Below are positions 14,348 through 54,417 of a DNA stretch of 64,000 nt, piece by piece (positions within the stretch are counted from its first letter, which is position 1; each line of letters begins with the position of its first letter). The DNA lies in contig JBKAGP010000001.1 of NCBI GenBank assembly GCA_046290465.1, positions 4,416,001 to 4,480,000 on the forward strand, given 5' to 3'. This DNA is from Planctomycetota bacterium (GTDB lineage: Bacteria > Planctomycetota > UBA1135 > UBA2386). The position numbers were made by a program, and so were the translations under genes. Under the pieces are notes generated by a model. That model did not search any database. It saw only the letters and a list, made by a program, of their open reading frames with translations, and had not been told where the DNA came from.

Positions 14348-15109
14348 GTGGCGACCAAGAAGACATCCAGGAAGAAGGCCGCCGCCAAGGCTGCCGCGAC
14401 CATCGCGCCGTCGGGGCCGCCGCCGGCGCGCGACGAACTGCTCCAGCGGCTGCAGCTGGCGATCCCGAAGCCGGAGTGCGAGCTCGACCACACCGACGGC
14501 TACACGCTGTTGATCGCGACGATCCTGAGCGCGCAGAGCACCGACCGGACCGTCAACACCGTCACGCCGGTGCTGTTCCAGAAGTGGCCGACGCCGGCGG
14601 CGCTGGCATCGGCGCCGCGCGAAGACGTCGAGGAGGTCGTGCACCGCACCGGCTTCTTCCGCAACAAGGCCAAGGCGATCCAGGGCGCCAGCCTGGCGAT
14701 CCACACCGAACACGGTGGTGAGGTGCCGCGCGATCTCGACACGTTGATCAAGCTGCCCGGCGTGGCGCGCAAGACCGCCAACGTCGTGCTCGGGGTCGCC
14801 TACGGCATCCCGTCGGGCATCGTCGTCGACACCCACGTGACGCGGGTCAGCCAGCGGCTCGCGCTGACGAGCGAGAAGAACGCCGAGAAGGTCGAGCGCG
14901 CGCTGTGCGAGCTGTTCGACCGCGACCAGTGGATCGACAGCGGCCACCGGATCCTGCTGCTCGGCCGCTACGTCTGCCTCGCCAAGAACCCGGATTGCGG
15001 CAACTGCCCGATCAACGAGATCTGTCCGTCGCGCGTCGCCGAGCCGATCGGGCCATGGCAAGATCGTGCCGCGCATACCGCCGAACTGGTCGCGAGGCGC
15101 GGCGCGTGA
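14348..15109 (+). CDS. nth: Endonuclease III
   Basis: ILSAQSTD, HhH LPGVARKTANVV, VDTHV, 4Fe-4S loop C-x6-C-x2-C-x5-C. Start could be the GTG at 14330 or 14348. Confidence 0.95.
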   Translation: MATKKTSRKKAAAKAAATIAPSGPPPARDELLQRLQLAIPKPECELDHTDGYTLLIATILSAQSTDRTVNTVTPVLFQKWPTPAALASAPREDVEEVVHRTGFFRNKAKAIQGASLAIHTEHGGEVPRDLDTLIKLPGVARKTANVVLGVAYGIPSGIVVDTHVTRVSQRLALTSEKNAEKVERALCELFDRDQWIDSGHRILLLGRYVCLAKNPDCGNCPINEICPSRVAEPIGPWQDRAAHTAELVARRGA

Positions 15110-15855
15110 TCGAGTTCCGGTCCGTTCGCAAGGTGTTCGTCGGGGACGACGGACGCGAGCACGTCGCGCTGCGCGACGTCGACCTGCGCATCGAGACCGG
15201 CGAACTGCACGTGCTGATCGGCACCAGCGGCTGCGGCAAGACCACCACGCTGCGGCTGGTCAATCGGCTCGAGGAGGCGAGCGACGGCGAGGTGATGGTC
15301 GGCGGCGTCGACGTGCGCACCGAGGACCCGATCGCGCTGCGCCGGCGCATCGGCTACGTGATCCAGACCGGTGGGCTGTTCCCGCACTGGAGCGTCGCGC
15401 GCAACGTCGGCACGCTGTGCGAACTCGAGGGCCACGCCGCCGAGCGCATCGAGGCGCGCACCCGCCAGCTGCTCGACCTGGTCGGGCTGCCGTTCGAGAC
15501 GTTCGGTCGGCGGTTGCCGCGCGAGCTGTCCGGCGGCCAGCGCCAGCGCGTCGGCATCGCCCGCGCGCTCGCTCTGGAGCCCGAATACCTGCTGCTCGAC
15601 GAGCCGTTCGGCGCGCTCGATCCGATCACGCGTGCCGAACTGATCGAGGAGCTGCGGCCGCTGTTCGCCGAACTCGGCAAGACCGTGCTGCTGGTCACCC
15701 ACGACCTCGCGGAGGCGTTCGCGCTCGGCGATCGTGTGACGCTGATGGACGGTGGCCGCGTCGTGCAGACCGGCGTCGAACGGGACTTCCTCGAGCGGCC
15801 GGCCGAGCCGTTCGTCGAGCGCTTCGTCGCCAGCGTGCGCGGGGGTGGGCGATGA
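15106..15855 (+). CDS. Osmoprotectant-type ABC transporter ATP-binding protein (ProV/OpuBA-like)
   Basis: Walker A GTSGCGKTT, IGYVIQ..GLFPH, LSGGQRQR, LLLDEPFGALDPITR. Confidence 0.92.
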   Translation: MIEFRSVRKVFVGDDGREHVALRDVDLRIETGELHVLIGTSGCGKTTTLRLVNRLEEASDGEVMVGGVDVRTEDPIALRRRIGYVIQTGGLFPHWSVARNVGTLCELEGHAAERIEARTRQLLDLVGLPFETFGRRLPRELSGGQRQRVGIARALALEPEYLLLDEPFGALDPITRAELIEELRPLFAELGKTVLLVTHDLAEAFALGDRVTLMDGGRVVQTGVERDFLERPAEPFVERFVASVRGGGR

Positions 15856-17438
15856 GGCTCGCGCTGATGCTGCTGGCGCTCTCCGCGTCCCTTTGCGCGC
15901 AGACCACGATCCGGGTCGGCAGCAAGAAGTTCGCCGAGTCCGCGATCCTCGCCGAGCTGATGGCGCAGATGATCGAGCAGCACACCGAGTTGACGGTCGA
16001 GCGCCGGCTCAACCTGCAAGGCACGATGCTGTGCTGGCAGGCGCTGCAGTCCGGCGAGATCGACCTCTATGCGGAGTACACCGGCACCGGCTGGGCGACG
16101 ATCGTCGGCCGCACCGACAAGGTCACCGATCCGCTGCGCGCGTTCTTCGAAGTGCGCCGCTTCTGCCGCGACGAGCACGACGTGCACTGGCTCGAGCCGT
16201 TCGGCCTCAACAACACCTATGCGCTGGCGATGCGCGAGGACCGCGCGGTCGAGCTCGGCGTCAGCCGCATCTCCGATCTGATCCCGCACCAGGCGTCGCT
16301 GCGCGCCGGGTTCGGCGGCGAGTTCGGCGAACGCGCCGACGGCTACCGCGGCCTGCAGCAGGTCTACGGCCTGCAGCTCGGCGAGGTGCGCGTCGTCGAG
16401 CATGCGCTCGGCTACGAGGCGATCGCCGCGGGCCAGCTCGACCTGATGGACGTCTACTCGACCGACGGCAAGCTGCTGCGGTTCGAGCTGCGGGTGCTCG
16501 AGGACGACCGCCGCTTCTTCCCGCCGTACAACGCCGCGCCGATGGTGCGCGGCGCGACGCTGCGCCAGCACCCGGAGATCGAGGGCGCGCTCGGCCGGCT
16601 CGCGTTCCGGCTGCCGGACCACGACGCGCAGGCGCTCAACTACCTGGTCGAGGCCGAGGGCTTCACGGCGCGGCAGGTCGCGCGCGCGTTCCTCGAGGTC
16701 GAACAGTTGGTCGAAGGCCTCGAGGAGTCGGTCGCTGCCGAGAAGGCGCGGGCCGCGTTCCTGCGGGTTCGACGCGCGCCGCCGGCGCCCGGCGCCGCAG
16801 CCGCCCAGCGACCGGGGTTCTTCGGCACGCTGCAGCGCTCGTGGGGCAAGCTCGGCGAACGAGTGCTGCAGCACCTGCTGTTGACGCTGGCGGCGGTCGG
16901 TCTCGCCTGCGCGCTGGCCATCCCGCTCGGAGTGCGCATGGCCGCCGCCCCGCGCCTGCGCGCGGCGCTGCTGGCGTTCGCCGGGGTCGTGCAGACGATC
17001 CCCAGCCTGGCGCTGCTGGTGTTCCTGATCCCGCTGTTCGGCCTGAGCGCGTGGTCGGCGATCACCGCGCTGTTCCTCTACGCGCTGCTGCCGATCCTGC
17101 GCAACACCTGCACCGGCATCCTCGGTGTGCCCATGGACCTCGTCGACGCGGCGCGCGGCATGGGCATGCGCGACCACGAGATCCTGTGGAAGGTGCAGCT
17201 CCCGCTGGCGATGCCCACGATCCTCGCCGGCGTGCGCACCGCGACGGTCATCAGCATCGGCTTCGCGGTGCTCGCGGCGTTCATCGGCGCGGGCGGTCTC
17301 GGCGGCTTCATCGTCGATGGCCTGGCACTCAACGACATGTCGCTGCTGCTGCTCGGGGCGATGCCGGCGGCGGCGCTCGCGGTGCTCGGCGACCGGTTGC
17401 TCGGTCTGCTCGAACGCGCGCTCAGTCCGCGGCTCTGA
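15852..17438 (+). CDS. Glycine betaine/choline-type ABC transporter, fused substrate-binding + permease
   Basis: VGSKKFAES, YAEYTGTG, GLNNTYAL, FFPPY (OpuAC-like) followed by QTIPSLAL...LLPILRNT..G...DAARGMGM (permease). Confidence 0.92.
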   Translation: MRLALMLLALSASLCAQTTIRVGSKKFAESAILAELMAQMIEQHTELTVERRLNLQGTMLCWQALQSGEIDLYAEYTGTGWATIVGRTDKVTDPLRAFFEVRRFCRDEHDVHWLEPFGLNNTYALAMREDRAVELGVSRISDLIPHQASLRAGFGGEFGERADGYRGLQQVYGLQLGEVRVVEHALGYEAIAAGQLDLMDVYSTDGKLLRFELRVLEDDRRFFPPYNAAPMVRGATLRQHPEIEGALGRLAFRLPDHDAQALNYLVEAEGFTARQVARAFLEVEQLVEGLEESVAAEKARAAFLRVRRAPPAPGAAAAQRPGFFGTLQRSWGKLGERVLQHLLLTLAAVGLACALAIPLGVRMAAAPRLRAALLAFAGVVQTIPSLALLVFLIPLFGLSAWSAITALFLYALLPILRNTCTGILGVPMDLVDAARGMGMRDHEILWKVQLPLAMPTILAGVRTATVISIGFAVLAAFIGAGGLGGFIVDGLALNDMSLLLLGAMPAAALAVLGDRLLGLLERALSPRL

Positions 17439-18333
17439 TCGCCGCGCGCAGTTCGGCGGCTGCGGCGTGCCAGCTGCGCGGCTCGGCGGTCCGTCGGCGC
17501 CGCGGCGGCGGATCCGCTGCCAGCGCCCGCAGCCTGGCGCGAACGTCGTCGTCGTTCGCGTCGGGCGGCAGCAGCGCGCGCGACCGATCGTCCCCGAACG
17601 TCGCCAGCTCGCCGGTGTCGAGTCCGAACAGGACCAGCCCCGCGGCGACGCCCTCCGCCGCCGCCATGCCGAACGACTCGCTGCCGCTCAACGATGCGAA
17701 TACGTCGTGCTCCCGGTAGAGCTCGGCGAGCCGCTCGACCGGCACCGCGTCGAGCACGGTGACCGGTAGCCCCGCGGCCTCGCGGCGCAGCGCCGTGACC
17801 TCACCGGGGTCGCGCGTCATGCTGCCGACCAGGGTCAGCCGCCACGGCGTCGTCAGCGCGCGCAGCATCGCGACCAGCCGCCGCTGGCCCTTGGCCGGAC
17901 AGATCGTGCCGGCGCAGACGAACGCCAGCGTCGGGTCGCCGCGCCGCGGCTGCGGCGTGAAGCACCCGTCGATGCCGGGGCGCACGATGTCGACGCGCCG
18001 CGCCGCCGCGGCGACGGCGCTGGCGGTCGGTTGGCCGGTCGCGACGACGTGCAGCGGAGCCTCGGACCACGGCGTGCGCGCCGGCACCATGTGCAGCAGC
18101 GCGGTGACGTTCGGCGGCAGCGGTGCGTCGAGCAGGTCGGCGAACCAGCCGTCGACGATCACGGTCGCGTCGGGTTGGCCGCGCTGCAGCAGGCGCACGC
18201 AGCGCCGCAGCTCGGGCGGCGCGACCTCGACGCGGCGCGCGGCCGGTCCGAGCGCAGCGACGATGCGTTGCTGGTAGCGGAAGCCACCCGACGGCAGTCC
18301 TTCCGGCCGCGGTGGCTCCAGCAGCACGATCAA
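17422..18333 (-). CDS. Glycosyltransferase family 4
   Basis: SGGFRY, GTICPAKG, ESFGMAAAEG. The TTG start overlaps the upstream stop. Confidence 0.88.
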   Translation of the reverse strand: MIVLLEPPRPEGLPSGGFRYQQRIVAALGPAARRVEVAPPELRRCVRLLQRGQPDATVIVDGWFADLLDAPLPPNVTALLHMVPARTPWSEAPLHVVATGQPTASAVAAAARRVDIVRPGIDGCFTPQPRRGDPTLAFVCAGTICPAKGQRRLVAMLRALTTPWRLTLVGSMTRDPGEVTALRREAAGLPVTVLDAVPVERLAELYREHDVFASLSGSESFGMAAAEGVAAGLVLFGLDTGELATFGDDRSRALLPPDANDDDVRARLRALAADPPPRRRRTAEPRSWHAAAAELRAAIRAAD

Positions 18334-18725
18334 CCGATCGGCCCCTCGTAGCTCGCCCACGCGACCCGACTCTCCTCGAGCGTCACCCGCAGCCCGCCGA
18401 CGAACGAGCCGTCGAACGCCGCGCAGACCTGTCGGTGCACCCACTGCGCGAGGAACTCGGTCGTCGTGTTGTTGCCGGCGAACTCCGGCAGGTCGTCGAG
18501 GTTGGTGAACCGCAGCGGGTCGAGCACTTCTTTCAGCGTCTCGGTCGCCAGGCCGATGTCGACGACGATGCCGTGCGCGTCGAGCCGGTCGGCCACGTAT
18601 TCGGTGATGACCTCGTAGGTGGCGCCGTGCAGGCGCTGCGCCGGCCCGAACACCTCGCCGTTGAGGCTGTGCGCGATCATCACGTGGTCCTTGACGGCGA
18701 CTCGGAACGCGGCGGGGTGCTTCAT
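18330..18725 (-). CDS. 6-pyruvoyl-tetrahydropterin synthase/QueD family paralog (COG0720, PTPS-IV-like)
   Basis: MIAHS...FGPAQRLHGATY...NLD...NTTTEFLA...LEES. Lacks the QueD CxxxHGH motif. Confidence 0.9.
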   Translation of the reverse strand: MKHPAAFRVAVKDHVMIAHSLNGEVFGPAQRLHGATYEVITEYVADRLDAHGIVVDIGLATETLKEVLDPLRFTNLDDLPEFAGNNTTTEFLAQWVHRQVCAAFDGSFVGGLRVTLEESRVAWASYEGPIG

Positions 18726-18734
18726 GGCGGCAGT

Positions 18735-19703
18735 CTATCGGTGTCGGAGCACCGGGCAGAGGGAGGCGAGGCGCGATTCGTACAGCGCCGCGAACGTCGC
18801 CGGCGCCTCGGCGAACGGCACCGGCTCGTCGAGCAGCAGGTCGAGGTGGTGGTCCAGCAGCAGGTCCAGAACGGCGCGGCGACGGGCGGTGTGGCCCTGT
18901 TGGCGATGGCTGCGTGCGATCGTCCCGACCTGCGACGCGACCAGGCGCTTGCGCTGCGAATGGAAGGTCCCGCCCAGCCGGATCGACACCGGCTGGTCGC
19001 CGTACCACGACAGCTCGACGACCTGACCTTCGAACGCGACCGCGTCGATCGCGAGCTGCAGGCCGGACGCGCTGGCGCTCGTGTGCAGCGCGTGGCGGAA
19101 CGTGCCGCGCGGCACCTCGTCCGGTGCCGCGACGTCGGTCACCCACGGCAGCGCCGCGGCCCGCCGTCGCCGCCGTTCGTCGACGTCGACGACCAGCACG
19201 TTGCCGAGGTCCAGATCCTTCGCCAGCACGAACGCGCACAGCAGGCCGACCGCGCCGGCACCGACGATCACGGTGCGTTCGCCCGGTTCGACGCCGGCGT
19301 CCCAGACGGCGTTGCGCGCCGTCTCGAGGTTGGGGAACAGCGTCGCGCGGGCGTCCGGGACGCCGTTGGGCAGCCAGACGAGTTCGTCGTGGGCCACCAC
19401 CGCGTGCTGTTGGTGCGGACGCATCACGAACGCACGGCGGCCGGCGTCGACGCCATCGCACACCTGCCCGACGAAGCTGTAGCCGTAGAGCAACGGCAGC
19501 GTGAAGCTGCCGAGCATGCCGCGGCAGGCCATCTCGTCGGCGAGCGACGTCGGCACGCGACCGAGCCCGACCAGCCGTTCGGTGCCGGGGCTGATGCCGG
19601 TGCACGAGGCCGCCAGCGTGACCTGGTCGTCGCCGGCCGCCGGCAGCGGCACCTCGCGCAGCGCGCCGCGGCCCGGCGCCTCGATCCAGTATCCGAGGGT
19701 CAT
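18735..19703 (-). CDS. Zinc-binding alcohol dehydrogenase-like (MDR) oxidoreductase
   Basis: GISPGTE, YGYSFVG, ETARNAVWD, GAGAVG, ELSWYG...LGG.FH..R..L..SQVG. Confidence 0.88.
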   Translation of the reverse strand: MTLGYWIEAPGRGALREVPLPAAGDDQVTLAASCTGISPGTERLVGLGRVPTSLADEMACRGMLGSFTLPLLYGYSFVGQVCDGVDAGRRAFVMRPHQQHAVVAHDELVWLPNGVPDARATLFPNLETARNAVWDAGVEPGERTVIVGAGAVGLLCAFVLAKDLDLGNVLVVDVDERRRRRAAALPWVTDVAAPDEVPRGTFRHALHTSASASGLQLAIDAVAFEGQVVELSWYGDQPVSIRLGGTFHSQRKRLVASQVGTIARSHRQQGHTARRRAVLDLLLDHHLDLLLDEPVPFAEAPATFAALYESRLASLCPVLRHR

Positions 19704-20683
19704 GTGCGCGGTCGGCAGGTCAGCAGCACGTGGCCGTCGAGCATCGCGTGGTCCATGTGCACGTGCAGGCCGTCGTCGACGTGGTCGACGGCGGGGAGGC
19801 GCAGGCTCGGCAGCCCGGACCCCAGCACCAGCGCCGCGATGTGCACCTGCAGCAGGTCGACCTGGCCGGCATTCAAGAACGACGACAGCACCCCGGCTCC
19901 GCCTTCGAGGTAGATCGAGTGCACGCCGCGTTCGCGCAGGCGCGCGAGGATCGTCTCGGGGGCGAGCTGTCCGTCGACCGCGGCGATGCGATGCACCCGC
20001 ACGGCGTCGCCGACGTCCAGGGTCGGGCGCATCTCGTCGACGAACACGTCGCATCCGGGCGCCTGCATCAGCGAAAGCTTCGGGCCCTCGGTCAGCGCAC
20101 GGCCGCGGCCACTGATCACGACCCGTCGCGGGTCGGTGCCTTCGACGTGGCGGACCGTGAGCTTGGGGTCGTCGCGCAGCGCGGTGGTCGCGCCGACCAT
20201 CACGCCGTCGAGCAGCGCGCGCATGCGGTGGGCATGGTGTTGGTCCGCGTCGTTGCCGATCCACTGCGACTGGCCGTTCTCGCACGCGATGCGGCCGTCG
20301 ATCGTCTGCGTCACGTGACCGGCGACGAAGCTGGCGCCGCGTCGCCGGGCCCGTTCGGCGCCGATCAGCACCGGCAGGTAGACGCGCGCCGCGGTCGCCA
20401 TCGCCGGATCGAGCGGCGTTGCGCGCTTCTGTTGGATGTCCGGCAGGCCGCGCGCGTCGGTCCGGTAGACGGCCGTCGCGGTGGCGGCGTGCGCGGCGTC
20501 GGCGGCGCCGGGCTCGAGTTCGGCCAGCAGCGAGCCGCTCGTCGCCGCGGCTCGAGACGACGCCGGTTCGCAGCGCCAGCCGTCACGCGGCACGAACGTC
20601 ACCGCGTCGGCGCCGTCGCGGAACCGTTCGCGCGCGGCCAGCAGCGCGGGCCAGGGCAGATCGTCGGAGAGGTCGCAGTTCAT
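19700..20683 (-). CDS. RibD C-terminal-like reductase with N-terminal extension
   Basis: QTIDGRIA..G.SQWI, HRMRA..DGVMVGATT...DDPKLTVR, YLEGGA. No deaminase HAE/PCxxC motif. Confidence 0.88.
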   Translation of the reverse strand: MNCDLSDDLPWPALLAARERFRDGADAVTFVPRDGWRCEPASSRAAATSGSLLAELEPGAADAAHAATATAVYRTDARGLPDIQQKRATPLDPAMATAARVYLPVLIGAERARRRGASFVAGHVTQTIDGRIACENGQSQWIGNDADQHHAHRMRALLDGVMVGATTALRDDPKLTVRHVEGTDPRRVVISGRGRALTEGPKLSLMQAPGCDVFVDEMRPTLDVGDAVRVHRIAAVDGQLAPETILARLRERGVHSIYLEGGAGVLSSFLNAGQVDLLQVHIAALVLGSGLPSLRLPAVDHVDDGLHVHMDHAMLDGHVLLTCRPRT

Positions 20684-20842
20684 CGCAGGTGTGCGCGAGT
20701 TGCGGCGCGGATCGTATCGCCGCCATCGCACCGCGTCGCTGCCGCCGGCGAGGTCGGCAAGGATGCGTTGCCGTGGCGCCGTCGAGACTCCGTCGATCGG
20801 GCGTCGGGATCCCGATCGTGGTGTCGGGGTATGCTGTGAGCG

Positions 20843-21541
20843 GTGGCTTCGAACCCGCTGGGAATCTGGTCGCGCCTGCAGGCGCTGGTCTGGGGCGCGG
20901 CGCTCGTCTGGCTCGCGCTGTTCTCCGCGCCCGCAGGCGGCCGCTTCTACGTCGCAGCCGGCGCCTGTGCCAGCATCGCGACGCTCGCCTGCGTGCTGCG
21001 CGTGCCGTCGACGCCAGCCGACGCGGTCACGTTGCTGCGCGCCCTGCTGCTGGCGATGGCCACCTGCGCCCCGGACTGGCCGGGGCTGGATGCCTTCTCG
21101 ACGTGGATCCTGTTCGCGGTCGCAGCGATGCTCGATCTGGTCGACGGCGCGGTCGCGCGCCGCTTCGGGGCGAGCGATCGCGGCGCCGTGCTCGACATGG
21201 AGGCGGACCAGCTGTCGGTGCTGTGCCTGTCGTGCTCGGTGGTGTTCGGCGGTGGGGCCCCGCATGTGCTGCTGCTGCCGCTGATGCGCTACGCCTTCGT
21301 GCTGGCCGCGTGGTGCGCGGCGTTGCCGGCCAACGATCCGAAGCCCGTCGACGGCGACAACCACCGCGGCCGGCTGGTCTGTGCCGTCGTCGTCGTCGTG
21401 CTGCTGCTGGCGCTGCTGCCGGGCACGCCGCGCTGGACGGCCGACATGCTGACCGGGTCTGCCGTGCTGCTGCTGACCTGGTCGTTCGCAGGCGACTGGG
21501 CGTTCTTGTTCGCGCGCCGCGGACGGGAGGCCCGTTCGTGA
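20843..21541 (+). CDS. CDP-alcohol phosphatidyltransferase family protein
   Basis: Signature DLVDGAVARR...GAVLDMEAD (DxxDGxxAR...GxxxDxxxD); multiple TM segments. Confidence 0.9.
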   Translation: MASNPLGIWSRLQALVWGAALVWLALFSAPAGGRFYVAAGACASIATLACVLRVPSTPADAVTLLRALLLAMATCAPDWPGLDAFSTWILFAVAAMLDLVDGAVARRFGASDRGAVLDMEADQLSVLCLSCSVVFGGGAPHVLLLPLMRYAFVLAAWCAALPANDPKPVDGDNHRGRLVCAVVVVVLLLALLPGTPRWTADMLTGSAVLLLTWSFAGDWAFLFARRGREARS

Positions 21542-22155
21542 ACGCGCCCGAACTCGTGTTGCTCGCCGCCTACGCATCGTTGCTGGTCGAACTGGTGGCG
21601 TTTCCGATCCCGAGCGAGGCCAGCGTCGTGCAGCTCGTCGGCCCCAACGGCGGCGGCGACGCACCGGCCTTGCGCGCCGCGCGCGCGTCGTCGCTGCCGG
21701 TGCGCGTGCTGCGCTACCTGCTGCCGACGGCCGCCTGTGTCGCGTTGTTCCTGCTCCCGCTGCTGGTCGTGTTGGTGCCGTCGACGCGCACGGCCCTGGC
21801 GCCGTGGAGCCACGAAGGTCTGCTCTGGCCGGGCATTGCGCTGGTCGTCGTCGGTCGCGCGGTGACGTTCTGGTCGGTGCTCGACCTGCGCGCAGCCAGG
21901 CGCCGCGACGAGCTGCCCGGCGGCGCGTTCCTGCGCTCGCGCAACCCTGGGCTGGTCGGCATGTTCGTCATGTACGCCGGTCTCTGTGTCGCCGTCGGCG
22001 GCCCCTGGCTGTGGCTCGGCGCCCCGCTCTACCTGGCCAACATGCATGTGCGCGTGCAGCTCGAGGAGGCCAGCCTCGCTGCGCGTTACGGGGCTTGCTG
22101 GCGGGACTATGCCCGCCGCGTGCCGCGCTACCTGCCGTTCTCCGGACTGCGTTGA
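21538..22155 (+). CDS. Isoprenylcysteine carboxyl methyltransferase/PEMT-like membrane methyltransferase
   Basis: RSRNPG...EEASLAARYG..WRDYARRVPRY; GTGA overlap with the previous gene. Confidence 0.85.
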   Translation: MNAPELVLLAAYASLLVELVAFPIPSEASVVQLVGPNGGGDAPALRAARASSLPVRVLRYLLPTAACVALFLLPLLVVLVPSTRTALAPWSHEGLLWPGIALVVVGRAVTFWSVLDLRAARRRDELPGGAFLRSRNPGLVGMFVMYAGLCVAVGGPWLWLGAPLYLANMHVRVQLEEASLAARYGACWRDYARRVPRYLPFSGLR

Positions 22156-22159
22156 TCCC

Positions 22160-22879
22160 GTGCCCGCACCTCCCGTAGCCCAGGACGACGTCGCCGCCTG
22201 GTTCGACGCCACCTACCGCAAGAAGGGGCTCCGCTACCTGCGGCCACCGCGCGCCTACCCGATCTTCCTGCAGCTGCTCGACCTTCAACGCGGCCACCGC
22301 CATCTCGACGTTGCCTGTGGCCCGGGCATGGTGTTGCGCGCGGCCCGCGAGCGCGGCATCGAGGCGAGCGGCGTGGACCTTTCCGAAGCGGCGATCACGC
22401 TCGCGCAGGAGTTGCTGCCGGGGATCGATGCGCGGGTCGGCAACGCCGAGCAGCTGCCGTTCGACGACGGCACCTTCGATGGCGTCACGTGCGTCGGCTC
22501 GCTCGAGCGCTTCCTCGACCGCGAACGCGCGCTGCGCGAGATGGTGCGGGTCGCCCGCCCGGCCGCACGGTTCTGCTTCTTGGTCCGCAACGCCAGCACG
22601 CTCGTCTGGCGCGTCTGGCGCGAGGGCCTGGGCCACCGCGAGGTCGACGGGCACCAGGATGCACAGACGCTCGACGACTGGCGCACATTGTTCGTGCGCT
22701 GCGGGCTGCGCGTCGTGCGCGTGCTGCCGGACCAGTGGCCGCGCCAGCGATGGCGGCAGCTGCTGCCGGGCCAGCGACCCGGACCCGGTCGGCGCGAGCG
22801 CGTCGCCGGTTCGTGGTTGCCGTTGCGATGGTGCAACGAGCTGGTGTTCGTGTTGGAGCGCAGCGAGCTCGATGGCTGA
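22160..22879 (+). CDS. Class I SAM-dependent methyltransferase
   Basis: HLDVACGPG, GVDLS, NAEQLPFDDGTFD, ALREMVRVARP. Confidence 0.9.
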   Translation: MPAPPVAQDDVAAWFDATYRKKGLRYLRPPRAYPIFLQLLDLQRGHRHLDVACGPGMVLRAARERGIEASGVDLSEAAITLAQELLPGIDARVGNAEQLPFDDGTFDGVTCVGSLERFLDRERALREMVRVARPAARFCFLVRNASTLVWRVWREGLGHREVDGHQDAQTLDDWRTLFVRCGLRVVRVLPDQWPRQRWRQLLPGQRPGPGRRERVAGSWLPLRWCNELVFVLERSELDG

Positions 22880-23738
22880 GCGCGGCGCGGTTGCCCTCTA
22901 CGAGTCGCTTGCCCGCTTCCAGTGGCGGCGCGCCCGTCGCGGCGTCGCGCCGGACGCGCTCGAAGGCCTCGAACTCCGCAAGCGTCTGCTGCCACCGGGC
23001 AGCGCCGACGGTCCCGACGACGGCGGCGAAGGTCTGGATCGCTGGCTGCGCGGGCTGGCTGGCGGCTGCGACGGTGCGCGGGTGCTCGACCTCGGCTGCG
23101 GCTTCGGGGTGTCGTTGTTCCGCGCGCTCGATGCCGGAGCCAGCGCCGCCGTCGGGATCACGCCGAGCAGCTACCAGGTCGCGCGCGCCGGCGAGGTCGC
23201 GAACGCGCGCGGCGTGCGGGCGCGGGCGACGTTCGAGGTGCGCTCGATGCACGCGGCGCTGCCGCCGGCGGACCTGGTGCTGGCGATCGAGGCGCTCGGG
23301 CACACCTTCGAGCTGGCCGACGTGTTGCACAACGTCGCCACAGCGCTCGGTGGTGGCGGCCGCTTCCTGTGGCTCGAGGACGTGCTCCGGGACGACCCGG
23401 GCGAAGATCCGGGCCAAGATCCGGACGTGCGTGGCCTCGCTGCCGCGTGGAGCTCGCCGCCGTTGCGCAGGGCCGCTGGTTGCGACGCAGCGCTGCGCGC
23501 CGCGGGCCTGCGCGTCGTCGACGAGTTCGACCTGACCGGGCAGGTGGCCCGGCGTGAGGTCACCGCGATCGACCGTTCGCTGCGGCGGCTGCGCGGGCTG
23601 CTGCGGCTCACGCCGTTGCCGTTCGCCCGCCGCATCCTGCGCGCATTCGTCGGCGGCCTGCACCTCGAACGGCTCTACGCCCGCGGCCTCGCCTGCTACC
23701 GTCTGGTCATGACCGAACGCACACGGGACCGCGCATGA
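22872..23738 (+). CDS. Class I SAM-dependent methyltransferase (sterol/tocopherol MT-like)
   Basis: VLDLGCGFG, GITPSSYQV, DLVLAIEALGH. Confidence 0.85.
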   Translation: MAERGAVALYESLARFQWRRARRGVAPDALEGLELRKRLLPPGSADGPDDGGEGLDRWLRGLAGGCDGARVLDLGCGFGVSLFRALDAGASAAVGITPSSYQVARAGEVANARGVRARATFEVRSMHAALPPADLVLAIEALGHTFELADVLHNVATALGGGGRFLWLEDVLRDDPGEDPGQDPDVRGLAAAWSSPPLRRAAGCDAALRAAGLRVVDEFDLTGQVARREVTAIDRSLRRLRGLLRLTPLPFARRILRAFVGGLHLERLYARGLACYRLVMTERTRDRA

Positions 23739-25378
23739 TCCGACGCTTGCTCTGGTGGCTGTTGGCCCTGGCTCCGCTGTTCGCGGCGATCGGCTGGGCG
23801 ATGTTCTCGGCCGTGTTGCCCGAGGCGCACGCCGCGCGCGAGGCGCTCGGCGACCTGCGCACCACCTGGTCGTTCGCCGATTGGGACCGGACGGACGGCG
23901 GGCCGCTGCACGTCGTCGCGCGGCTGCTGCACCTCGCGGCGCTGCACGTGCCCGGCGCATCGGTGCGGTCTGTCGTCTGGCTCAACGTGCTCTGCGCGGT
24001 GCTGATCGGGTCGACGCTGTTCTCGATCGCGCGGCGATCGTTCCCGTCGGCGAAGTTCGCGTCCGGGCCGCTGCTGATCGCCACGATCGGCCTGCTGGTC
24101 TCGTCCCCGGCCCACGGCAGCAACTGGCTGCACGGCCAACGGGTCGGCGCGTTCCTGGCGCCGCTGCTGCTGGTCGTCGGCCTGTCGTGGCTGCAGGGGC
24201 AGGGCCGCTTCGTGCTGCGTGCGACCGGTGCGCTGCTGCTCGCCGGTCTGGCGCCGCTGTGCCACGCCAACGGCATCGCCGTGTTCCTGGCGATGGTGCC
24301 GGCGCTGTTGGCGCGCTGTCGCAGCGGCAGCACGATCTCGGCGATGGCGTGGCTCGGCGTGTTGCTGGTCGTCGGCAACCTCGCTGCCTGGTACGCGCTG
24401 CGCACGGCCGACGCGTTCGGCGTCGTCGGCGCCGATCTGCTGCACCGCGTCAGCAGCGAACCGCGCGAGATGCTCGGGCTGCTGTTCGCCGAGACCGGCC
24501 GCGCCTGGCTCGACGTCTGGCCGGCGACGCGGATCGACGAGCAGGCGATCGGCCTGTTCAGCTGGTTGCTGCCGGCGCTGCTGATGATCCCGGTCGGCCG
24601 TCGTGACGATGCCGCCCGCCTGCAGGCGGCGCCGTGGTGGGGCTGCCTGTGCTTCGGCCTCGCGGTGACGTTGGTCGCCGGCTTCCGCTACGAGCTGCAG
24701 CCGCCCGTCGGCACGATGCGCGAGGCGACCTACGGCGCGTTCTTGCTGCCGCTCGGGGCCGTCGGTCTGCTGGCGACGCGGTTCGGCGCGTCGCTGCTGC
24801 CGTTCGCCGCGGGCGCGTTCGCGGTGCTGGGCGTGCAGGACTGGCACGGTGGGCTCGAGCAGCTGCGCATCGCGAGGACGCGCGCGGTGCGGGCGGTCGC
24901 CGAGGTCGCGATCGACCCGCAGGGTGTGACGCGGGTGTTCGGCTCCGAGGCCGTGCAGCAGCAGCTGGTCGCGCGCGGCTGGATCCCCGACGAAGCCCCC
25001 ATCGACGCGCGCACCGCTGCGGTCGCCGCGGTGCCACGGCGTCCAGAGGTCGGTCGGTCTACCGGCGGTCGGTCTGCTGGCGGTCGCGTCGACCAACTGC
25101 GCGGGACGGTGCGCAGCTCGCTGCGCGGCGTCACGCCGAGCTGGCTCGGGGCGGTGACCCGGCAAGGGGACGGCGACCCGCAGCTGGTCGCGCAGCACTG
25201 GCCCGACTTCGAAGGCGTCGGCCGCGACGTCGCCTGGAGGATCCCGCTCGATCCGCCGCTGACCGACGGCGTGCGGGTGCGGGTCGTCGCCTGGCTGCCG
25301 GAGGAGCGCGCGTTCGCGGCGGTCGGCCCGCGGTATGTCGTCAGCGGCGGTGCCCTCACGGTCGATAACGGACCGTGA
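23735..25378 (+). CDS. Polytopic membrane protein with C-terminal soluble domain
   Basis: Many hydrophobic segments in the first ~370 aa; 4-bp overlaps with both neighbours. Confidence 0.75.
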   Translation: MIRRLLWWLLALAPLFAAIGWAMFSAVLPEAHAAREALGDLRTTWSFADWDRTDGGPLHVVARLLHLAALHVPGASVRSVVWLNVLCAVLIGSTLFSIARRSFPSAKFASGPLLIATIGLLVSSPAHGSNWLHGQRVGAFLAPLLLVVGLSWLQGQGRFVLRATGALLLAGLAPLCHANGIAVFLAMVPALLARCRSGSTISAMAWLGVLLVVGNLAAWYALRTADAFGVVGADLLHRVSSEPREMLGLLFAETGRAWLDVWPATRIDEQAIGLFSWLLPALLMIPVGRRDDAARLQAAPWWGCLCFGLAVTLVAGFRYELQPPVGTMREATYGAFLLPLGAVGLLATRFGASLLPFAAGAFAVLGVQDWHGGLEQLRIARTRAVRAVAEVAIDPQGVTRVFGSEAVQQQLVARGWIPDEAPIDARTAAVAAVPRRPEVGRSTGGRSAGGRVDQLRGTVRSSLRGVTPSWLGAVTRQGDGDPQLVAQHWPDFEGVGRDVAWRIPLDPPLTDGVRVRVVAWLPEERAFAAVGPRYVVSGGALTVDNGP

Positions 25379-26985
25379 ACCCGACCTGGTCCTGGCGCCG
25401 CGTCGTGGGCCTGGTGCTCGCGCTCGCCTGGCTGCACACGCTCGCGGTCCTGCCGTTGCACGACCCGGCCCTGTGGGCGACTGCCGCCACCGCGCTGCCG
25501 CCGGACCTGCTGCTGTTGCTCGCGGTCGCCGTGATCGGCGGCGCCGCCGGCTGGCCGAAGCGGATCGCGCACGTCGCCGCGTTCGGCATGTTGGTGAGCA
25601 CGTTCTCGCGGGTCTGCGAGGTCGTCAGCGTGTTGGCGTTCCAGAAGGCGTTCGAGCTGGCCGACCTGCCGCGCCTGCACGGACTCTTCGACGCGTGGGC
25701 CAACAAGGCGCCCACCTGGGAGCGCTGGGCCTGGGGTGGTGCGTTGGTCGCCCTGGTGGTCGTGCTCCTCTGGGTGACGTCGCGGGCGTTCCGCGCGGTC
25801 GCGCGAACGGCGATGCGGCCGCGGGTCGCCGGCTGCTGGTTGTTCGTGCTGCAGGCGTTGGTGCTGCTCGGGCTGCTCTGCCCGCAGCGTCCGTTCGAGC
25901 CGTCGCCGCTGCGTCTGCTGGCGGGCAGGTCCTGGGACGCGCTGCGCCTGTGGATCGACCGGGACGCGGTGCTGGCGCCGCTGCGGCTGGAGATCGCCGC
26001 AGGCGAACGCCGCATGCGGGAGACGCCGCACGACCTGCAGCGGCTCGACGGCGCCGACGTCTACCTGCTGGTGCTCGAGTCGTACGGGCGCGTGGCGCTG
26101 CGGCACCCGCAGACCGGACCTGACGTGCGCGCGCTGCTGGCCGGCTTCGAAGCGGACCTGCGCCGCCGCGGCCTGGCTTCCTGCAGCTCTGCGATCGCGC
26201 CGGCGGTCAAGGGCGGCGGCTCGGGGCTGGCGCACGCGGAGCTGCTGACCGGCGTGCGCGTGCCCACCGAACGGGTGCGTGCGATGCTGATGCAGAGCGG
26301 CCTGGTCGCGCTGCCCAAGCGCTTCCGCGAAGCCGGCTACGGGACCTTCGAGCTGTTGCCGGGCATGCCGATCCACTGGCCGGAGGGCGACGCGTTCTAC
26401 GGCGTCGATCGTTCGATCATCCAGAGCGAGCTCGGGTACGACGGCACGCGCTACGACTTCGGCCAGATGCCCGACCAGTTCGCGCTGCAGCGTCTGCTCG
26501 AACGGGTCGTGGTGCCGGCCGAGCGACCGGTGTTCGCGATGTTCGTCGGCGTCAGCAGCCACGCCCCCTGGTCGGCGATCCCGCCGTTCGTCGACGACTG
26601 GCAGATCGACGAACGCACGTTCCTCGGCGGGCCCGCCACGACCCACGACGTGCAGTACCTGTCGATGTTCCGCGACCCCGACGTGCTGCCGGCCTATGTC
26701 GACTCGCTCGGCTACGTGCTGCGCACGAGCTTCGGGTTCGCCGCGCGTCTCGAGCGCCCGTCGATCGTGGTGGTGCTCGGCGACCACCAGCCGCCGATCG
26801 CGGCGTCGGTCTCGCCGCCCGACCGGAGCTTCGACGTGCCGGTGCACCTCGTCAGCAACCGTCCCGAGCTGCTGGATCCCTGGCGCGCGCAGGGCTTCAC
26901 CGACGGCCTCGACGTGCCCGATGCGACCGTGGCCTGGCCGATGGCCGAGTTCGCGGTGCGGCTGCTGCGCGCCTATTCGCGCTGA
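25375..26985 (+). CDS. Membrane-anchored sulfatase/LTA-synthase-like (alkaline phosphatase superfamily) protein
   Basis: About 5 N-terminal TMs, then LLVLESYG, GGGSGLAH, SSHAPW and LGDHQP metal-site motifs. Confidence 0.8.
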   Translation: MNPTWSWRRVVGLVLALAWLHTLAVLPLHDPALWATAATALPPDLLLLLAVAVIGGAAGWPKRIAHVAAFGMLVSTFSRVCEVVSVLAFQKAFELADLPRLHGLFDAWANKAPTWERWAWGGALVALVVVLLWVTSRAFRAVARTAMRPRVAGCWLFVLQALVLLGLLCPQRPFEPSPLRLLAGRSWDALRLWIDRDAVLAPLRLEIAAGERRMRETPHDLQRLDGADVYLLVLESYGRVALRHPQTGPDVRALLAGFEADLRRRGLASCSSAIAPAVKGGGSGLAHAELLTGVRVPTERVRAMLMQSGLVALPKRFREAGYGTFELLPGMPIHWPEGDAFYGVDRSIIQSELGYDGTRYDFGQMPDQFALQRLLERVVVPAERPVFAMFVGVSSHAPWSAIPPFVDDWQIDERTFLGGPATTHDVQYLSMFRDPDVLPAYVDSLGYVLRTSFGFAARLERPSIVVVLGDHQPPIAASVSPPDRSFDVPVHLVSNRPELLDPWRAQGFTDGLDVPDATVAWPMAEFAVRLLRAYSR

Positions 26986-26987
26986 CG

Positions 26988-28036
<1,049 letters not shown>

Positions 28037-28040
<4 letters not shown>

Positions 28041-28828
28041 CGGATCGGGAACCACTGGCGCCGGAGCAGGAACAGCACGACCGCCGACACCAGCAGCAGG
28101 ATCATGCTCAGCGCGATCGCGGCCGACGGCTGCGATTCGAGCGCGTGGAAGACGGCGAGCGGCATCGTGCGCGTGCGTCCCTGAAAGCTGCCGGCGAACG
28201 TGATGGTCGCGCCGAACTCACCGAGCGCCCGCGTCCAGGCGATCAGCAGGCCGGCGCGCAGCGTCGGCGCGATCATCGGCAGCGTGACCGTGCGGAACGC
28301 GCGCCACGGCGTCGCGCCGAGCGTCTGGGCCGCGTCGGCGTAGCGGCGGTCGAAGCCGCGCAGGCCGCCCTCGACCGTCAGCACGAAGAACGGCATCGCG
28401 ACGTAGGTGGTCGCGAGCACCACCGAGCAGGTCGTGAACGGAACCTCGACGCCGAACCAGCGACCGAGTGCGCCGCCGAGCACGCCGTTCTGTCCGAACG
28501 CGAGCAGCAGCGCGATGCCGCCGACGATCGGCGGCAGCACCATCGGCAGCGTCGTGATCACGCGCACGATGCTGCGCAGGGCGCCGTCGCCGTGGGCCAG
28601 CCAGGTCGCGAGCGGCAGCCCGAACCCGACGCACAGCAGCGCCGACGCCAGCGAGCACTGTAGCGACAGCCACAGCGCCGCGACGGTCTCGTCGGCGACC
28701 AGCAGCTCGCCGAGTTCGGCCCACGGCGCTTCGACCGCGAGGCCGACCAGCGGTGCGGCGAACAGCACGACCGAGACGCCGGCGATCGCGACCAGCCAGC
28801 GCGGCAGCGGTGTGCGGTGGTGCCTCAT
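28037..28828 (-). CDS. modB: Molybdate ABC transporter permease
   Basis: LPMVLPPIVGG, RALGEFGATITFAG...TRTMPL. Confidence 0.92.
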
Positions 28829-29655
28829 GGCGCGGGGAACCCGTGCTGTGCGAGGATGCGTCGGCCTTCGGCGCCGAGCACGAACGCGACGAAGGCGTGG
28901 CCACCGTCGGTCCGATCGCCGCCAGACGTGGCGACGATCGGGTAGGTCGCGACGACGTCGTGGTGGGCGGGCAGCTCGACCGCGTGCAAGCGCTCGGAGG
29001 CCGCCAGGGCGTCGGTCCGGTAGACGATGCCGGCATCGGCGACGCCGAGCTCGATCTTGCTGACGATCGCGCGCACGCTCGGCTCGTCGGACGCGGAGGT
29101 CACGGCGACGCCGGCGCGGGCCAGCGCCTCGCGCGCGTAGCGGCCGGCCGGCACCGCCGGCGCGCACAGCAGGCAGGTGACGTCGTCGCGGCTCAGGTCT
29201 GCGAGCCCGGTGACGTTCTTGGGGTTGCCCGGGCGGGTGACGATCACCAGCGAGTTGCCGGCGAACGGGCGCGGCACGCCGGCGGCACGGCTGGCGTCGA
29301 CGACGCGCTGCATCTGGATGTGGTCGGCCGAGGCGAACACGTCGGCCGGCGCACCTTCGCGCAGCTGCAGCACCAGCTGCGGCGTGCCGGCGCAGTGCAG
29401 GTCCAGGCGCAGCTCGGGGTGACGTTCGCCGAACGCGCGCGTCAGCTGCTCGAACGGCGCGGTCAGCGACGCCGCCGCGAACACCCGGACGGTCGGACGT
29501 GCATCGCCGCGGCAGCCGGCCAACAGCAGGGTGGCCAACAGCAGCGTGGCCAACAACAGCGTGGCCAACAACAGGGTGGCCAATCGCAGGGTGCAGGTCC
29601 GCTGGCTGTCGATCCGCAGCACGCCGGCCAGCGACCTGGCGGTCGCGGTCGGCAT
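28825..29655 (-). CDS. modA: Molybdate ABC transporter substrate-binding lipoprotein
   Basis: LAGC lipobox, VFAAASL, GAPADVFASA, VPAGRYA, DAGIVYRTD. Start uncertain. Confidence 0.88.
   Translation of the reverse strand: MPTATARSLAGVLRIDSQRTCTLRLATLLLATLLLATLLLATLLLAGCRGDARPTVRVFAAASLTAPFEQLTRAFGERHPELRLDLHCAGTPQLVLQLREGAPADVFASADHIQMQRVVDASRAAGVPRPFAGNSLVIVTRPGNPKNVTGLADLSRDDVTCLLCAPAVPAGRYAREALARAGVAVTSASDEPSVRAIVSKIELGVADAGIVYRTDALAASERLHAVELPAHHDVVATYPIVATSGGDRTDGGHAFVAFVLGAEGRRILAQHGFPAP
29518..29592. repeat. Five 15-bp tandem repeats encoding (ATLLL)n in the ModA signal peptide
   Basis: ggccaacagcagggt / ggccaacagcagcgt / ggccaacaacagcgt / ggccaacaacagggt / ggccaatcgcagggt. Confidence 0.9.
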
Positions 29656-30588: not shown

Positions 30589-31176
30589 ATGAGCGTCAAG
30601 CGCGCAGCCTCCGGTATCGGCACCAAGCAGCGCATCCTCGAGGTGGCGACTGGGCTGATGCAGGCGCGCGGGTTCCACGGCTTCACGTTCCACGACGTCG
30701 CCGCGGAGCTCGGGATCAGCCACGTCGCCGTGCACCATCACTACAAGACCAAGGCGGCGCTGGTCGAGGCGGCGATGCTCGCCTACACCGAACGGTTCTC
30801 GGCGGAGCTCGAGCAGATCGCGGCGTCGGGCGAGCAGCCCGAGGACCAGCTGCGCAGCTACGCGGCGCTGTTCGACGCGGTGGTGCAGAGCGGCGACCGT
30901 GTCTGCCTGTGCGGCGTGCTCGCCGCCGAGCTGGCGACGCTGCCGGCGCCGGTGCAGCCCGCGGTGCGCGCGTTCTACGACGCCAACGAGGCGTGGCTGG
31001 CGCGCGTCATCGGCCGGCACGTCGGCAAGCGCAGTTCGTCGGCACGGGTGCAGCAGATGGCCAAGGCGTTCCTGTCGCTGCTGGAGGGCGCGATGATCAG
31101 CGCGCGCGCGTTCGGCGATCCGGCGCGGCTGTCGTCGGCGGCGCAGTGGTGGATCGACACGCTACCGGCGGCATGA
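30589..31176 (+). CDS. TetR/AcrR family transcriptional regulator
   Basis: RGFHGFTFHDVAAELGISHVAVHHHYKTKAAL HTH; CLCGVL in the ligand domain. Confidence 0.93.
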   Translation: MSVKRAASGIGTKQRILEVATGLMQARGFHGFTFHDVAAELGISHVAVHHHYKTKAALVEAAMLAYTERFSAELEQIAASGEQPEDQLRSYAALFDAVVQSGDRVCLCGVLAAELATLPAPVQPAVRAFYDANEAWLARVIGRHVGKRSSSARVQQMAKAFLSLLEGAMISARAFGDPARLSSAAQWWIDTLPAA

Positions 31177-40449: not shown

Positions 40450-41487
40450 TCACGCCAACGGCGCGAACTCGACCTTGTGCGCCTCGCCGACGACCTCGCG
40501 CACGTAGCGCGGCACGCCGAAGCCGGGCAGGCGCCGGCGCAGTTCGGCGATCAGCTGCTGGCCGCGTTCGACCGGCACCTCGAAGTGCTGCGCCCCGGCG
40601 ACCGGGTCGAGCTGGTGCAGGTAGTACGGCATCGTGCGCACGTCGAGCAGGCGGCGGGACAGTTCGGCCAGCGTGTCGGCGTCGTCGTTGATGCCGTGCA
40701 GCAGCACCGTCTGGTTGAGCACCGGCACGCCGCACCGGACCAGCCGCAGCAGCGCGTCGCCGCAGCTGGCGTCGATCTCGGCCGGGTGGTTGCTGTGCAC
40801 GACCACGGTCGGTGCCAGGCGGGTCGTGCCGAGCCAGCCGAGCAAAGCGTCGTCGATGCGGTCCGGGATCACGATCGGCAGCCGGGTGTGGATGCGCAGC
40901 CGCCGAACGTGCGGGATCGTCTCGAGCTGCCCGACGAGTTCGGCGAGCCAGCGGTCGGGGCGCATCAGCGGATCGCCGCCGGACAGGATCACCTCCTCGA
41001 GGTCCTCGCTGCGACGGATCTCGTCGAGGGCGGGCTGCCACTGGGCCAGGCCGGCCGGGCTGTCCTCGTAGGGGAAGTGGCGGCGGAAGCAGTAGCGGCA
41101 GGCGATCGCGCAGACGCCGGCGACGATCAGCAGCGCGCGGCCGTGGTACTTCTGCAGCAGCCCCGGCGCCTTGACGGCCTCGCCCTCGCCGCACGGGTCG
41201 GTGACGTAGCCCGAACCCGCATCCGCCAGCTCCGATGCGATCGGCAGCACCTGCGCCAGCAGCTGGTCGTGCGGATCGCCGTGCCGCATCCGGGCGACGA
41301 ACGCCTCCGGTACGACCAACGGAAACTGCGCCGCGGCGCGCCGTGCGCCTTCGCGCAGCGAGTCGGGCAGTCCGAGTCGCTCGAGCAGCGCGTCCGGGTC
41401 GCGGATCGCGCGGCGCAGCTGGTCCCGCCAGCTGCCGCGCTCGGGGCGCGGCTCGGCGTTCGGATCGGGTCGGATTTGGCGTTCCAC
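40450..41487 (-). CDS. epmB: EF-P beta-lysylation protein EpmB (lysine 2,3-aminomutase)
   Basis: CAIACRYCFRRHFPY, ILSGGDPL, LRIHTRLP, LNQTVLL, PYYLHQLD. Confidence 0.95.
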   Translation of the reverse strand: MERQIRPDPNAEPRPERGSWRDQLRRAIRDPDALLERLGLPDSLREGARRAAAQFPLVVPEAFVARMRHGDPHDQLLAQVLPIASELADAGSGYVTDPCGEGEAVKAPGLLQKYHGRALLIVAGVCAIACRYCFRRHFPYEDSPAGLAQWQPALDEIRRSEDLEEVILSGGDPLMRPDRWLAELVGQLETIPHVRRLRIHTRLPIVIPDRIDDALLGWLGTTRLAPTVVVHSNHPAEIDASCGDALLRLVRCGVPVLNQTVLLHGINDDADTLAELSRRLLDVRTMPYYLHQLDPVAGAQHFEVPVERGQQLIAELRRRLPGFGVPRYVREVVGEAHKVEFAPLA

Positions 41488-41527
41488 TGGCGGCGGTGGG
41501 GTCGTTTCGCTAATCGTTCTTGCCGCT

Positions 41528-42100: not shown

Positions 42101-42114
42101 GCGCGGGCCGGCCG

Positions 42115-47408: not shown

Positions 47409-47410
47409 GC

Positions 47411-49771: not shown

Positions 49772-49790
49772 GGGGGTGGCTCCTCGTGTC

Positions 49791-51974: not shown

Positions 51975-51992
51975 CGTCGTTCCTCCGAGGAT

Positions 51993-52619: not shown

Positions 52620-52627
52620 GGTGGGCT

Positions 52628-53593: not shown

Positions 53594-53615
53594 GGTCGTT
53601 CTCCTTGGTTCGCGA

Positions 53616-54410: not shown

Positions 54411-54417
54411 CTCGGGG

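Follow-up and report, generated by a model that had tools for sequence, protein, structure and literature searches.

A PTPS-IV gene cluster with a methyltransferase trio in a Planctomycetota bacterium, and its possible part in a pterin-like lipid and envelope pathway

PTPS-IV (COG0720 subfamily IV) has stayed an orphan for more than ten years. In the accessible text of PMC5445326, FGPAQ is given as its signature, and RibD_C is reported as a neighbour; GTP cyclohydrolase II (GCH II) is another gene expected in its neighbourhood. The sole function that we found in print, a role in F420 synthesis, is mentioned in the accessible part of PMC5041015 with reference to unpublished work. Here we analysed a stretch of 64,000 nucleotides from a Planctomycetota bacterium (assembly GCA_046290465.1, contig JBKAGP010000001.1, positions 4,416,001 to 4,480,000), hereafter the window, which harbours ten genes of this kind at 17422..26985. 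The locus is a PTPS-IV cluster with gene order conserved across a Planctomycetota family, and its subtype is marked by a PEMT-like and two class I methyltransferases in place of the usual single methyltransferase. Earlier publications cover the PTPS-IV family and some of its neighbourhood. The literature searched, with most subscription journals outside its scope, held no description of the trio subtype and no report of the cluster's product, in agreement with an original prediction, made from the DNA letters, that this product is unreported. We favour, tentatively and short of calling it probable, the reading in which a phosphatidyl group is joined to a pterin-like glycoside and the resulting phospho-head group is then passed on to a glycan of the envelope.

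Gene order and the methyltransferase-trio subtype

Ten open reading frames (ORFs) were confirmed in this region of 73% GC, where a codon-model gene caller preferred them to shadow frames. As originally predicted, they form two tightly overlapping operons diverging from a 159-bp gap, located between the start codons at 20683 (minus strand) and 20843 (plus strand). Of the eight intra-operon junctions, six are overlaps, five of them of 4 nt and one of 8 nt, and the genes at the remaining two are spaced by 9 and 4 nt. For MT1 the caller gave a short form starting at 22328; relatives support the GTG at 22160. The genes are as follows.

17422..18333, minus strand: GT4 (GT-B) glycosyltransferase, 303 aa, with a shortened N-terminal domain (Pfam Glyco_trans_1_4, E 3.7e-12; EX7E motif intact at residue 217)
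18330..18725, minus strand: PTPS-IV, T-fold, 131 aa (Pfam PTPS; FGPAQ; SCO6650/3D7J)
18735..19703, minus strand: zinc-free medium-chain dehydrogenase (MDR), BchC-like, 322 aa (NCBIfam BchC below cut-off; ligand positions replaced)
19700..20683, minus strand: RibD_C pyrimidine-nucleotide reductase lacking a deaminase domain, with a Rib7/ArfC-like specificity site, 327 aa (Pfam E 6.9e-32)
20843..21541, plus strand: CDP-alcohol phosphotransferase, 232 aa (Pfam E 1.2e-9; motif intact)
21538..22155, plus strand: PEMT/ICMT-family membrane methyltransferase, marker of the subtype, 205 aa (Pfam PEMT E 1.1e-4, below cut-off)
22160..22879, plus strand: class I S-adenosylmethionine methyltransferase MT1, 239 aa (Pfam Methyltransf_11, E 6.4e-21)
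22872..23738, plus strand: class I S-adenosylmethionine methyltransferase MT2, RebM/AtmM/MitM-like, 288 aa (profile matches)
23735..25378, plus strand: GT-C-fold membrane protein with a C-terminal Ig-like domain, probably accessory, 547 aa (AlphaFold model and structural search)
25375..26985, plus strand: LtaS/GacH/EptA-type phospho-head-group transferase, 536 aa (invariant residues; Foldseek on the model)

Pfam matches above cut-off were obtained for GT4, PTPS, RibD_C, CDP-OH_P_transf and both class I methyltransferases, while those to ADH_zinc_N (E 0.003), PEMT (E 1e-4) and Sulfatase (E 0.006) remained below it. The Pfam search gave no match for the polytopic membrane protein.

The two operons also occur together elsewhere, as had been supposed: their order is kept in the loci of the Planctomycetota family, and the methyltransferase trio recurs in metagenomes. 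The loci closest to the window cluster are all from Planctomycetota metagenome-assembled genomes; the common cluster type is also carried by Marinobacter, Roseibium and Nisaea species. The grouping of the genes is not accidental: in 22 planctomycete loci centred on a PTPS relative, tblastn detected the MDR in 21, RibD in 20 and the CDP-alcohol enzyme in 19. PEMT, MT1 and MT2 each occur in 17, compared with 11 for the sulfatase-like gene and 10 for the membrane gene; these counts are affected by the many loci ending at contig ends. The PEMT-like gene was found in 17 of these 22 loci versus none of 58 other PTPS-IV loci, and the canonical cluster methyltransferase in none of the 22 versus 43 of the 58. 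Neither MT1 nor MT2 was accepted as an orthologue of the canonical enzyme (best blastp E 0.13).

A metagenome scan with the PEMT alignment revealed 64 loci of 28-75% GC, and MT1 was present in 57 of them. Among the 18 loci of at least 8 kb, some of which are near-duplicates, MT1 was found in 18, PTPS-IV in 16, MDR, RibD, CDP-alcohol enzyme and MT2 in 15 each, the LtaS-type gene in 14 and GCH II in one, and the gene order varies among several. None of the 64 subtype loci encodes the canonical methyltransferase, LPG_synthase_TM, OpgH or creatininase. Their source labels include Pseudomonadota, Gammaproteobacteria, Acidobacteriota and Psychroserpens, and one Psychroserpens protein shows 78% identity to the PEMT of the subtype loci L162 and L168.

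A variant in Thermoanaerobaculia/Acidobacteriota (L051, L067, L074) possesses MT1, MT2, a third methyltransferase, a multicopper-oxidase-like gene, EamA and a GINT1_N-domain gene (Pfam-checked in L051), with no CDP-alcohol or LtaS-type gene in 20 kb. Decayed copies were also found: genome G002 (L007/L025) has a truncated MDR and the rest is missing, and in G034 (L019) PTPS-IV lies in two frames and the LtaS-type gene in fragments.

Left operon and the predicted entry metabolite

The COG0720 paralogue had been placed in PTPS-IV, and this assignment holds. The window protein carries the FGPAQ signature, as do 82 of 85 relatives, and the sole PDB match is SCO6650 (3D7J, E 1.8e-34). Residues H19, H33, E90 and E118 are kept in 85/85 relatives. 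Ala occupies the position where PTPS-I/III have Cys or Glu, also in 85/85, and the last His of HGH is never present (A, I or S instead). E90 and E118 presumably anchor the ring. Since the four residues are kept while the Cys/Glu is replaced and the last His is missing, PTPS-IV should bind a pterin-like ring yet not perform the classical PTPS chemistry. Assignment to QueD or to PTPS-I, II or III was rejected, as the window protein lacks their motifs (CxxxHGH, CxxxxxHGH and ExxHGH, respectively, in the accessible part of PMC5041015) and scores 40 bits with the QueD model, versus a cut-off of 89.

It is very improbable that the cluster genes merely back up the synthesis of F420, riboflavin, folate or queuosine. 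No CofD was detected across 61 genomes, among them all 19 that encode a full-length PTPS-IV, and the window genome (94% complete) gave no match to CofE or CofC and none over the cut-off to CofG. With CofC, CofD and CofE not found, the F420 role stated in print does not fit the window lineage. The genome has no FolB match and none of its three PTPS carries the CxxxHGH motif of QueD, as a backup would have it; it encodes, on the other side, RibBA, a full deaminase-reductase RibD, and FolE beside an ExxHGH (PTPS-III-type) gene. QueC is present in 59 of the 61 genomes versus 19 for full-length PTPS-IV. For the window lineage the backup role is thus largely refuted, as the original prediction had it for riboflavin, folate and queuosine. 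Both other PTPS genes of the genome (G000:C1:5838003, that is L101, and 5582341, that is L103) have ExxHGH and no Cys, and no FolB was found. QueC lies at 6472691, beside a FolP-like gene (by eye), though no PTPS has the QueD motif.

The best PDB match of the RibD_C protein is the archaeal DARPP reductase 6P8C, DARPP being 2,5-diamino-6-ribosylamino-4(3H)-pyrimidinone 5'-phosphate. At the position of Lys152, 58 sequences of the family have His (34), Gln (21), Ser (2) or Arg (1) and never Lys; the window protein has His123, and the genome's own full RibD has Lys. R155, T167, D171 and E260 are present in 58/58. Deaminase motifs (HxE, CxxC) were not found in the window reductase, whose residues 1-110 (ORF 20683-19700) form a variable extension with a conserved Trp-containing helix. 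The candidate of a bacterial bifunctional RibD was rejected, with neither deaminase domain nor Lys152 present. The score with the ArfC model TIGR01508 is 78.8 versus a cut-off of 186; the enzyme appears to work like, rather than to be, ArfC, and NADPH-dependent reduction of DARPP is predicted. In the accessible part of PMC3631187, enzymes with Lys at this site prefer the deaminated substrate and those with Thr its 2-amino counterpart. Because the window reductase lacks the uracil-selecting Lys, it probably keeps the 2-amino ring; the PTPS residues point the same way.

The dehydrogenase had been labelled a Zn-dehydrogenase, which is wrong. Ser38 and Y73-G74-Y75 stand at positions that we take to be those of the catalytic zinc ligands Cys and GHE in zinc MDRs, and they are present, with T41 and E42, in 61/61 sequences. 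A zinc enzyme was therefore rejected. The best NCBIfam match is BchC (E 7.9e-13, far under its cut-off).

The claim that PTPS-IV clusters with RibA and RibD paralogues stood in the window copy for RibD_C, which lies two genes upstream of PTPS-IV in the same operon, and not for RibA: the only GCH II domain encoded in the genome belongs to the housekeeping RibBA, about 650 kb from the cluster. Across the 61 genomes, GCH II matches were found in 59, with a second copy in three, each inside the cluster. GCH II (PF00925) is in the cluster in 4 of the 22 planctomycete loci. Among deeper relatives, it is fused to GT4 in L039, and three-domain GT4-GCH II-HAD fusions are encoded in L040 (7392-9782) and L041 (10396-12885), with the same order of matches in L107. 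The cluster GCH IIs of L039-L041 and the genome's RibBA carry a Tyr, presumably linked to DARPP formation, that is missing from two actinobacterial cluster copies. In the MDR tree the window is placed within a clade of 18 rows (SH-aLRT 96); L032 is the one member with a nearby GCH II, and the fused forms branch outside. The simplest reading is that GCH II was lost from the cluster of the window lineage, a direction read by parsimony from a quick, midpoint-rooted tree. This loss points to DARPP as the entry metabolite. As the window copy has no GCH II of its own, RibBA likely supplies DARPP, from which the pathway would start and which would have to be dephosphorylated on the way. A third RibA of S. 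coelicolor has, in the accessible text of PMC13151069, a function unrelated to flavin. In L032 (3486-4910) and L138, a 474-aa membrane protein with no Pfam match follows GT4, in L032 before a stand-alone GCH II.

Right operon and proposed pathway

The labels of CDP-alcohol phosphotransferase and LTA-synthase/sulfatase-like protein were borne out, since both active sites are intact. The CDP-alcohol motif DxxDGxxAR...GxxxDxxxD is complete (D98, D101, G102, A105, R106, G114, D118, D122) and kept in at least 85% of 34 sequences; the curated-family search reached no named subfamily cut-off. The Atlas neighbours of the PEMT-like protein are all PEMT, and SRNP, MH, EE and RY are invariant in 11 sequences 25-59% identical to the query. 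For MT1, no curated family was reached and no informative characterised relative was found.

The three methylations of the original prediction reduce to a gene count, and MT2 is closest to sugar O-methyltransferases, not to N-methyltransferases of the choline type. Its profile matches are AtmM (6UV6, E 5.1e-35), MitM (1.1e-32) and RebM (3BUS, 2.5e-32), far better than the phosphoethanolamine N-methyltransferases (1.8e-19). That weaker match, and the PEMT-like/MT1/MT2 trio travelling together across genomes of 28-75% GC, would fit a scheme in which the three enzymes N-trimethylate an amine, for instance released aminoribitol, to a choline-like zwitterionic head group, with the heterocycle not kept. 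We consider this scheme improbable, given the ranking of the MT2 matches, the single unrelated methyltransferase that suffices in most other PTPS-IV loci (43/58), and the residues expected to hold the ring, which PTPS-IV keeps.

The sulfatase-like protein is an LtaS/EptA-type phosphotransferase, as judged from its AlphaFold model (pLDDT 91.4), for which Foldseek gave LtaP (4UOP, E 2.4e-9), then LtaS, GacH, EptC and EptA. A sequence-profile PDB search with the sulfatase-like alignment gave LtaP only, at E 0.17. E235, S283, H396, D470 and H471 are invariant in 21/21 sequences, with their equivalence to LtaS taken from motifs rather than from superposition. A DndB-domain gene converges on the LtaS-type gene in L027, L028, L033, L034 and L036, and a similar gene adjoins the lone GT-C gene of genome G015.

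Of the 61 genomes, 17 have a full-length LtaS-type gene. Each of them belongs to the 19 genomes with full-length PTPS-IV, those with split clusters included, and none of the 42 genomes lacking full-length PTPS-IV has a full copy; the 17 genomes are kin and not independent. The two PTPS-IV genomes without a full LtaS-type gene are G002, with its decayed cluster, and G005 (81% complete), and in G034 both genes are in pieces. This linkage, the intact CDP-alcohol motif and the LtaS-type fold and residues support the lipid and transfer arm of the favoured reading. The arm is further supported by Wzx-like flippase genes in 7 non-planctomycete loci of the subtype and, among the 58 other PTPS-IV loci, by an OpgH-like gene in 17 and LPG_synthase_TM in 12.

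The same linkage bears on the possibility that the product of the left operon and the methyltransferases is a soluble methylated glycoside of a pterin or pyrimidine (a pigment, protectant or cofactor), to which the lipid genes, as a module of their own, are only loosely linked. The Thermoanaerobaculia loci, with GCH II, RibD, MDR, PTPS-IV, GT4, MT1, MT2 and a nearby EamA and no CDP-alcohol or LtaS-type gene in 20 kb, agree with such a product. It also has a precedent in vicine, a glycoside branching from DARPP according to the accessible part of a preprint (bioRxiv 10.1101/2020.02.26.966523). In the family, however, the LtaS-type gene occurs only with PTPS-IV (17/17 genomes), and the 18 long metagenome loci, near-duplicates included, hold the CDP-alcohol gene in 15 and the LtaS-type gene in 14, in several gene orders. 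We regard a soluble end product as unlikely.

Slightly less likely again is an end product that is a membrane lipid, with the LtaS-type enzyme either remodelling this lipid or decorating the glycoside with ordinary glycerophosphate taken from phosphatidylglycerol, rather than exporting the new head group. The enzyme's nearest solved folds are those of the glycerophosphate transferases LtaP, LtaS and GacH (we take phosphatidylglycerol to be their donor), and the window copy has no acceptor-glycan gene. On the other hand, this donor would make a dedicated CDP-alcohol enzyme unnecessary, and the OpgH-like glucan synthase beside 17 of the 58 other loci points to a glycan acceptor.

The polytopic membrane protein, counted as a pathway member in the original prediction, probably loses that place. 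It has a GT-C fold according to its AlphaFold model (pLDDT 88.2): the top 19 VIA rows are all GT-C or GPI-transamidase chains, with Z 14.5, rmsd (root-mean-square deviation) 5.0 and 336 aligned residues for the best match. In the first external loop, the motif PxxD(E/Q)W of distant relatives (Asp in 92% of 60) becomes Pro-Glu in the window subfamily (Glu in 98% of 58); the Asp is lost and the nearby Glu30 is kept. The gene has matches in 25 of the 61 genomes, six of them without a PTPS-IV match. Seven lone copies were examined; no other cluster genes surround them, and six have the same chromosomal neighbours (by eye). Conversely, it is missing from 20 of the 40 loci holding PEMT, MT2 and the LtaS-type gene, some of these loci being duplicates. 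As it is kept alone without the cluster and absent from half of the intact loci, the protein is taken to be accessory and probably not a core step, and the candidates of a core step and of the flippase were rejected. By genome profile, the LtaS-type transferase ranks as a core gene and the GT-C gene as a passenger.

In the favoured pathway, identities, residues, folds and co-occurrence are as observed above, and the chemistry is proposed from family membership and residues. Housekeeping RibBA would supply DARPP, which the RibD_C enzyme would reduce without deamination to a 2-amino ribityl phosphate. The zinc-free MDR would oxidise a ribityl hydroxyl; if this takes place at C2', the 5-amino group could close a dihydroneopterin-type ring. 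PTPS-IV may bind the 2-amino-4-oxo ring, with ring closure or side-chain trimming by non-classical chemistry. A phosphatase, corresponding to the fused HAD of relatives, would free the alcohol, GT4 would add a sugar, and MT2 and MT1 would methylate, MT2 probably on a sugar oxygen. The CDP-alcohol enzyme could then join the glycoside to CDP-diacylglycerol and the PEMT-like enzyme methylate the lipid-bound form. After flipping, Ser283 of the LtaS-type enzyme would carry the head group over to an acceptor in the envelope.

Several points weigh against this pathway. PMC3631187, in its accessible part, compared only Thr and Lys at the specificity site, and His was not among the variants. The MT2 family lacks the first His of the RebM motif ESLHH in 25/25 sequences, with the second His kept and Asp170 invariant. 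The lipid arm is not universal, since CDP-alcohol and LtaS-type genes are missing from the examined DNA of several PTPS-IV loci (Thermoanaerobaculia L051, L067, L074; cyanobacteria L042-L044, L047). The presence of FolE in the genome makes an indirect route to neopterin look redundant, and the ring may be something else. Finally, no Wzx was found in the genome (four queries), and no acceptor-synthesis gene in the window copy.

If the favoured pathway is true, the membrane lipid and the envelope modification would form a class of their own, new to the field. A broader version is more doubtful, namely that bacteria of several phyla make an undescribed pterin-bearing phospholipid without FolE, through GCH II, reduction, re-oxidation and ring closure, as donor for a methylated pterin glycoside phosphate on an envelope glycan. 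In that version a nucleotide-derived heterocycle would serve as a substituent of the cell surface, and PTPS-IV would gain a function distinct from the F420 role in print. The DARPP entry, the retained 2-amino ring and the split between core and passenger genes narrow the problem, so that the pathway is testable in vitro with four soluble enzymes.

Flanking DNA and comparison with known systems

The alignment of the intergenic gap from 16 related loci revealed no conserved element beyond two -10-like hexamers.

20830..20835, plus strand: conserved -10-like hexamer TATGCT, 7 nt before the GTG start (TANNCT in 16/16 related loci)
20711..20716, minus strand: possible -10 hexamer TACGAT of the left operon (weak)

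TANNCT just before the start of the CDP-alcohol gene, in 16 of 16 loci that are kin versus 0.4% of random 30-nt windows, suggests a leaderless transcript of the right operon. Upstream of the reductase, TANNNT occurs in 14 of 16 loci at variable distance, a weak signal with no control of its own. A sigma-70 scan of the 159-bp gap found no full site with a -35 element. At gathering thresholds Rfam detected no RNA family in the window, which leaves the gap without a known riboswitch.

An Opu-type osmoprotectant ABC transporter (15106-17438) and a Mod-like ABC transporter (26988-29655) flank the cluster and converge on it; in genomes G001, G002, G009, G013 and G014 they adjoin directly, with no cluster between. 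The window also encodes a B12-binding radical SAM protein (31173-32507), and a similar gene follows the lone GT-C gene of G004. EF-P with EpmB- and EpmA-like neighbours (40450-43068) and a flagellar gene block (45981-59271), both read by eye from translations, are ordinary.

Similar to the PTPS-IV neighbourhood of S. coelicolor (SCO6650, 3D7J), the window cluster possesses FGPAQ and a RibD_C neighbour, and its MDR, GT4, CDP-alcohol and LtaS-type neighbours are common to other phyla. It differs in lacking the PF00925 GCH II, creatininase, LPG_synthase_TM, OpgH and the canonical methyltransferase, and has the PEMT-like/MT1/MT2 trio and the GT-C gene instead. With fungal Rib7 and archaeal ArfC, the reductase shares a stand-alone form, a non-Lys specificity site, the catalytic Asp and Glu and the phosphate-binding Arg. 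Unlike them, its family has His or Gln in place of Thr or Asn, it carries a variable N-terminal extension of about 110 aa, and the genome encodes a separate complete RibD.

LtaS/LtaP, GacH and EptA/EptC, phospho-head-group transferases with which OpgB also belongs, share with the window protein N-terminal membrane helices and an alkaline-phosphatase-type domain with Glu, a hydroxyl nucleophile, His and Asp-His. The window protein is only 9-16% identical to them, has Ser as nucleophile and is tied to a putative GTP-derived pathway. The GT-C superfamily (Pmt, AftB, ArnT, AglB/STT3) shares the fold of the membrane protein; the window subfamily has Pro-Glu for the loop Asp, and the protein is dispensable to the cluster. 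The sugar O-methyltransferases RebM and AtmM use a His-Asp catalytic pair. They and MitM are the best profile matches of MT2 over most of its length, and the replaced first His sets the MT2 family apart from RebM.

We know of no pterin glycoside or vicine system that uses a CDP-alcohol or LtaS-type enzyme. Cyanopterin and other pterin glycosides are soluble and have a glycosylated GTP-derived ring, and cyanopterin is also O-methylated. Such a ring is the likeness of these compounds, and of vicine with its branch from DARPP as given in the accessible part of the preprint, to the product proposed here; they are soluble, whereas the window cluster possesses CDP-alcohol and LtaS-type genes.

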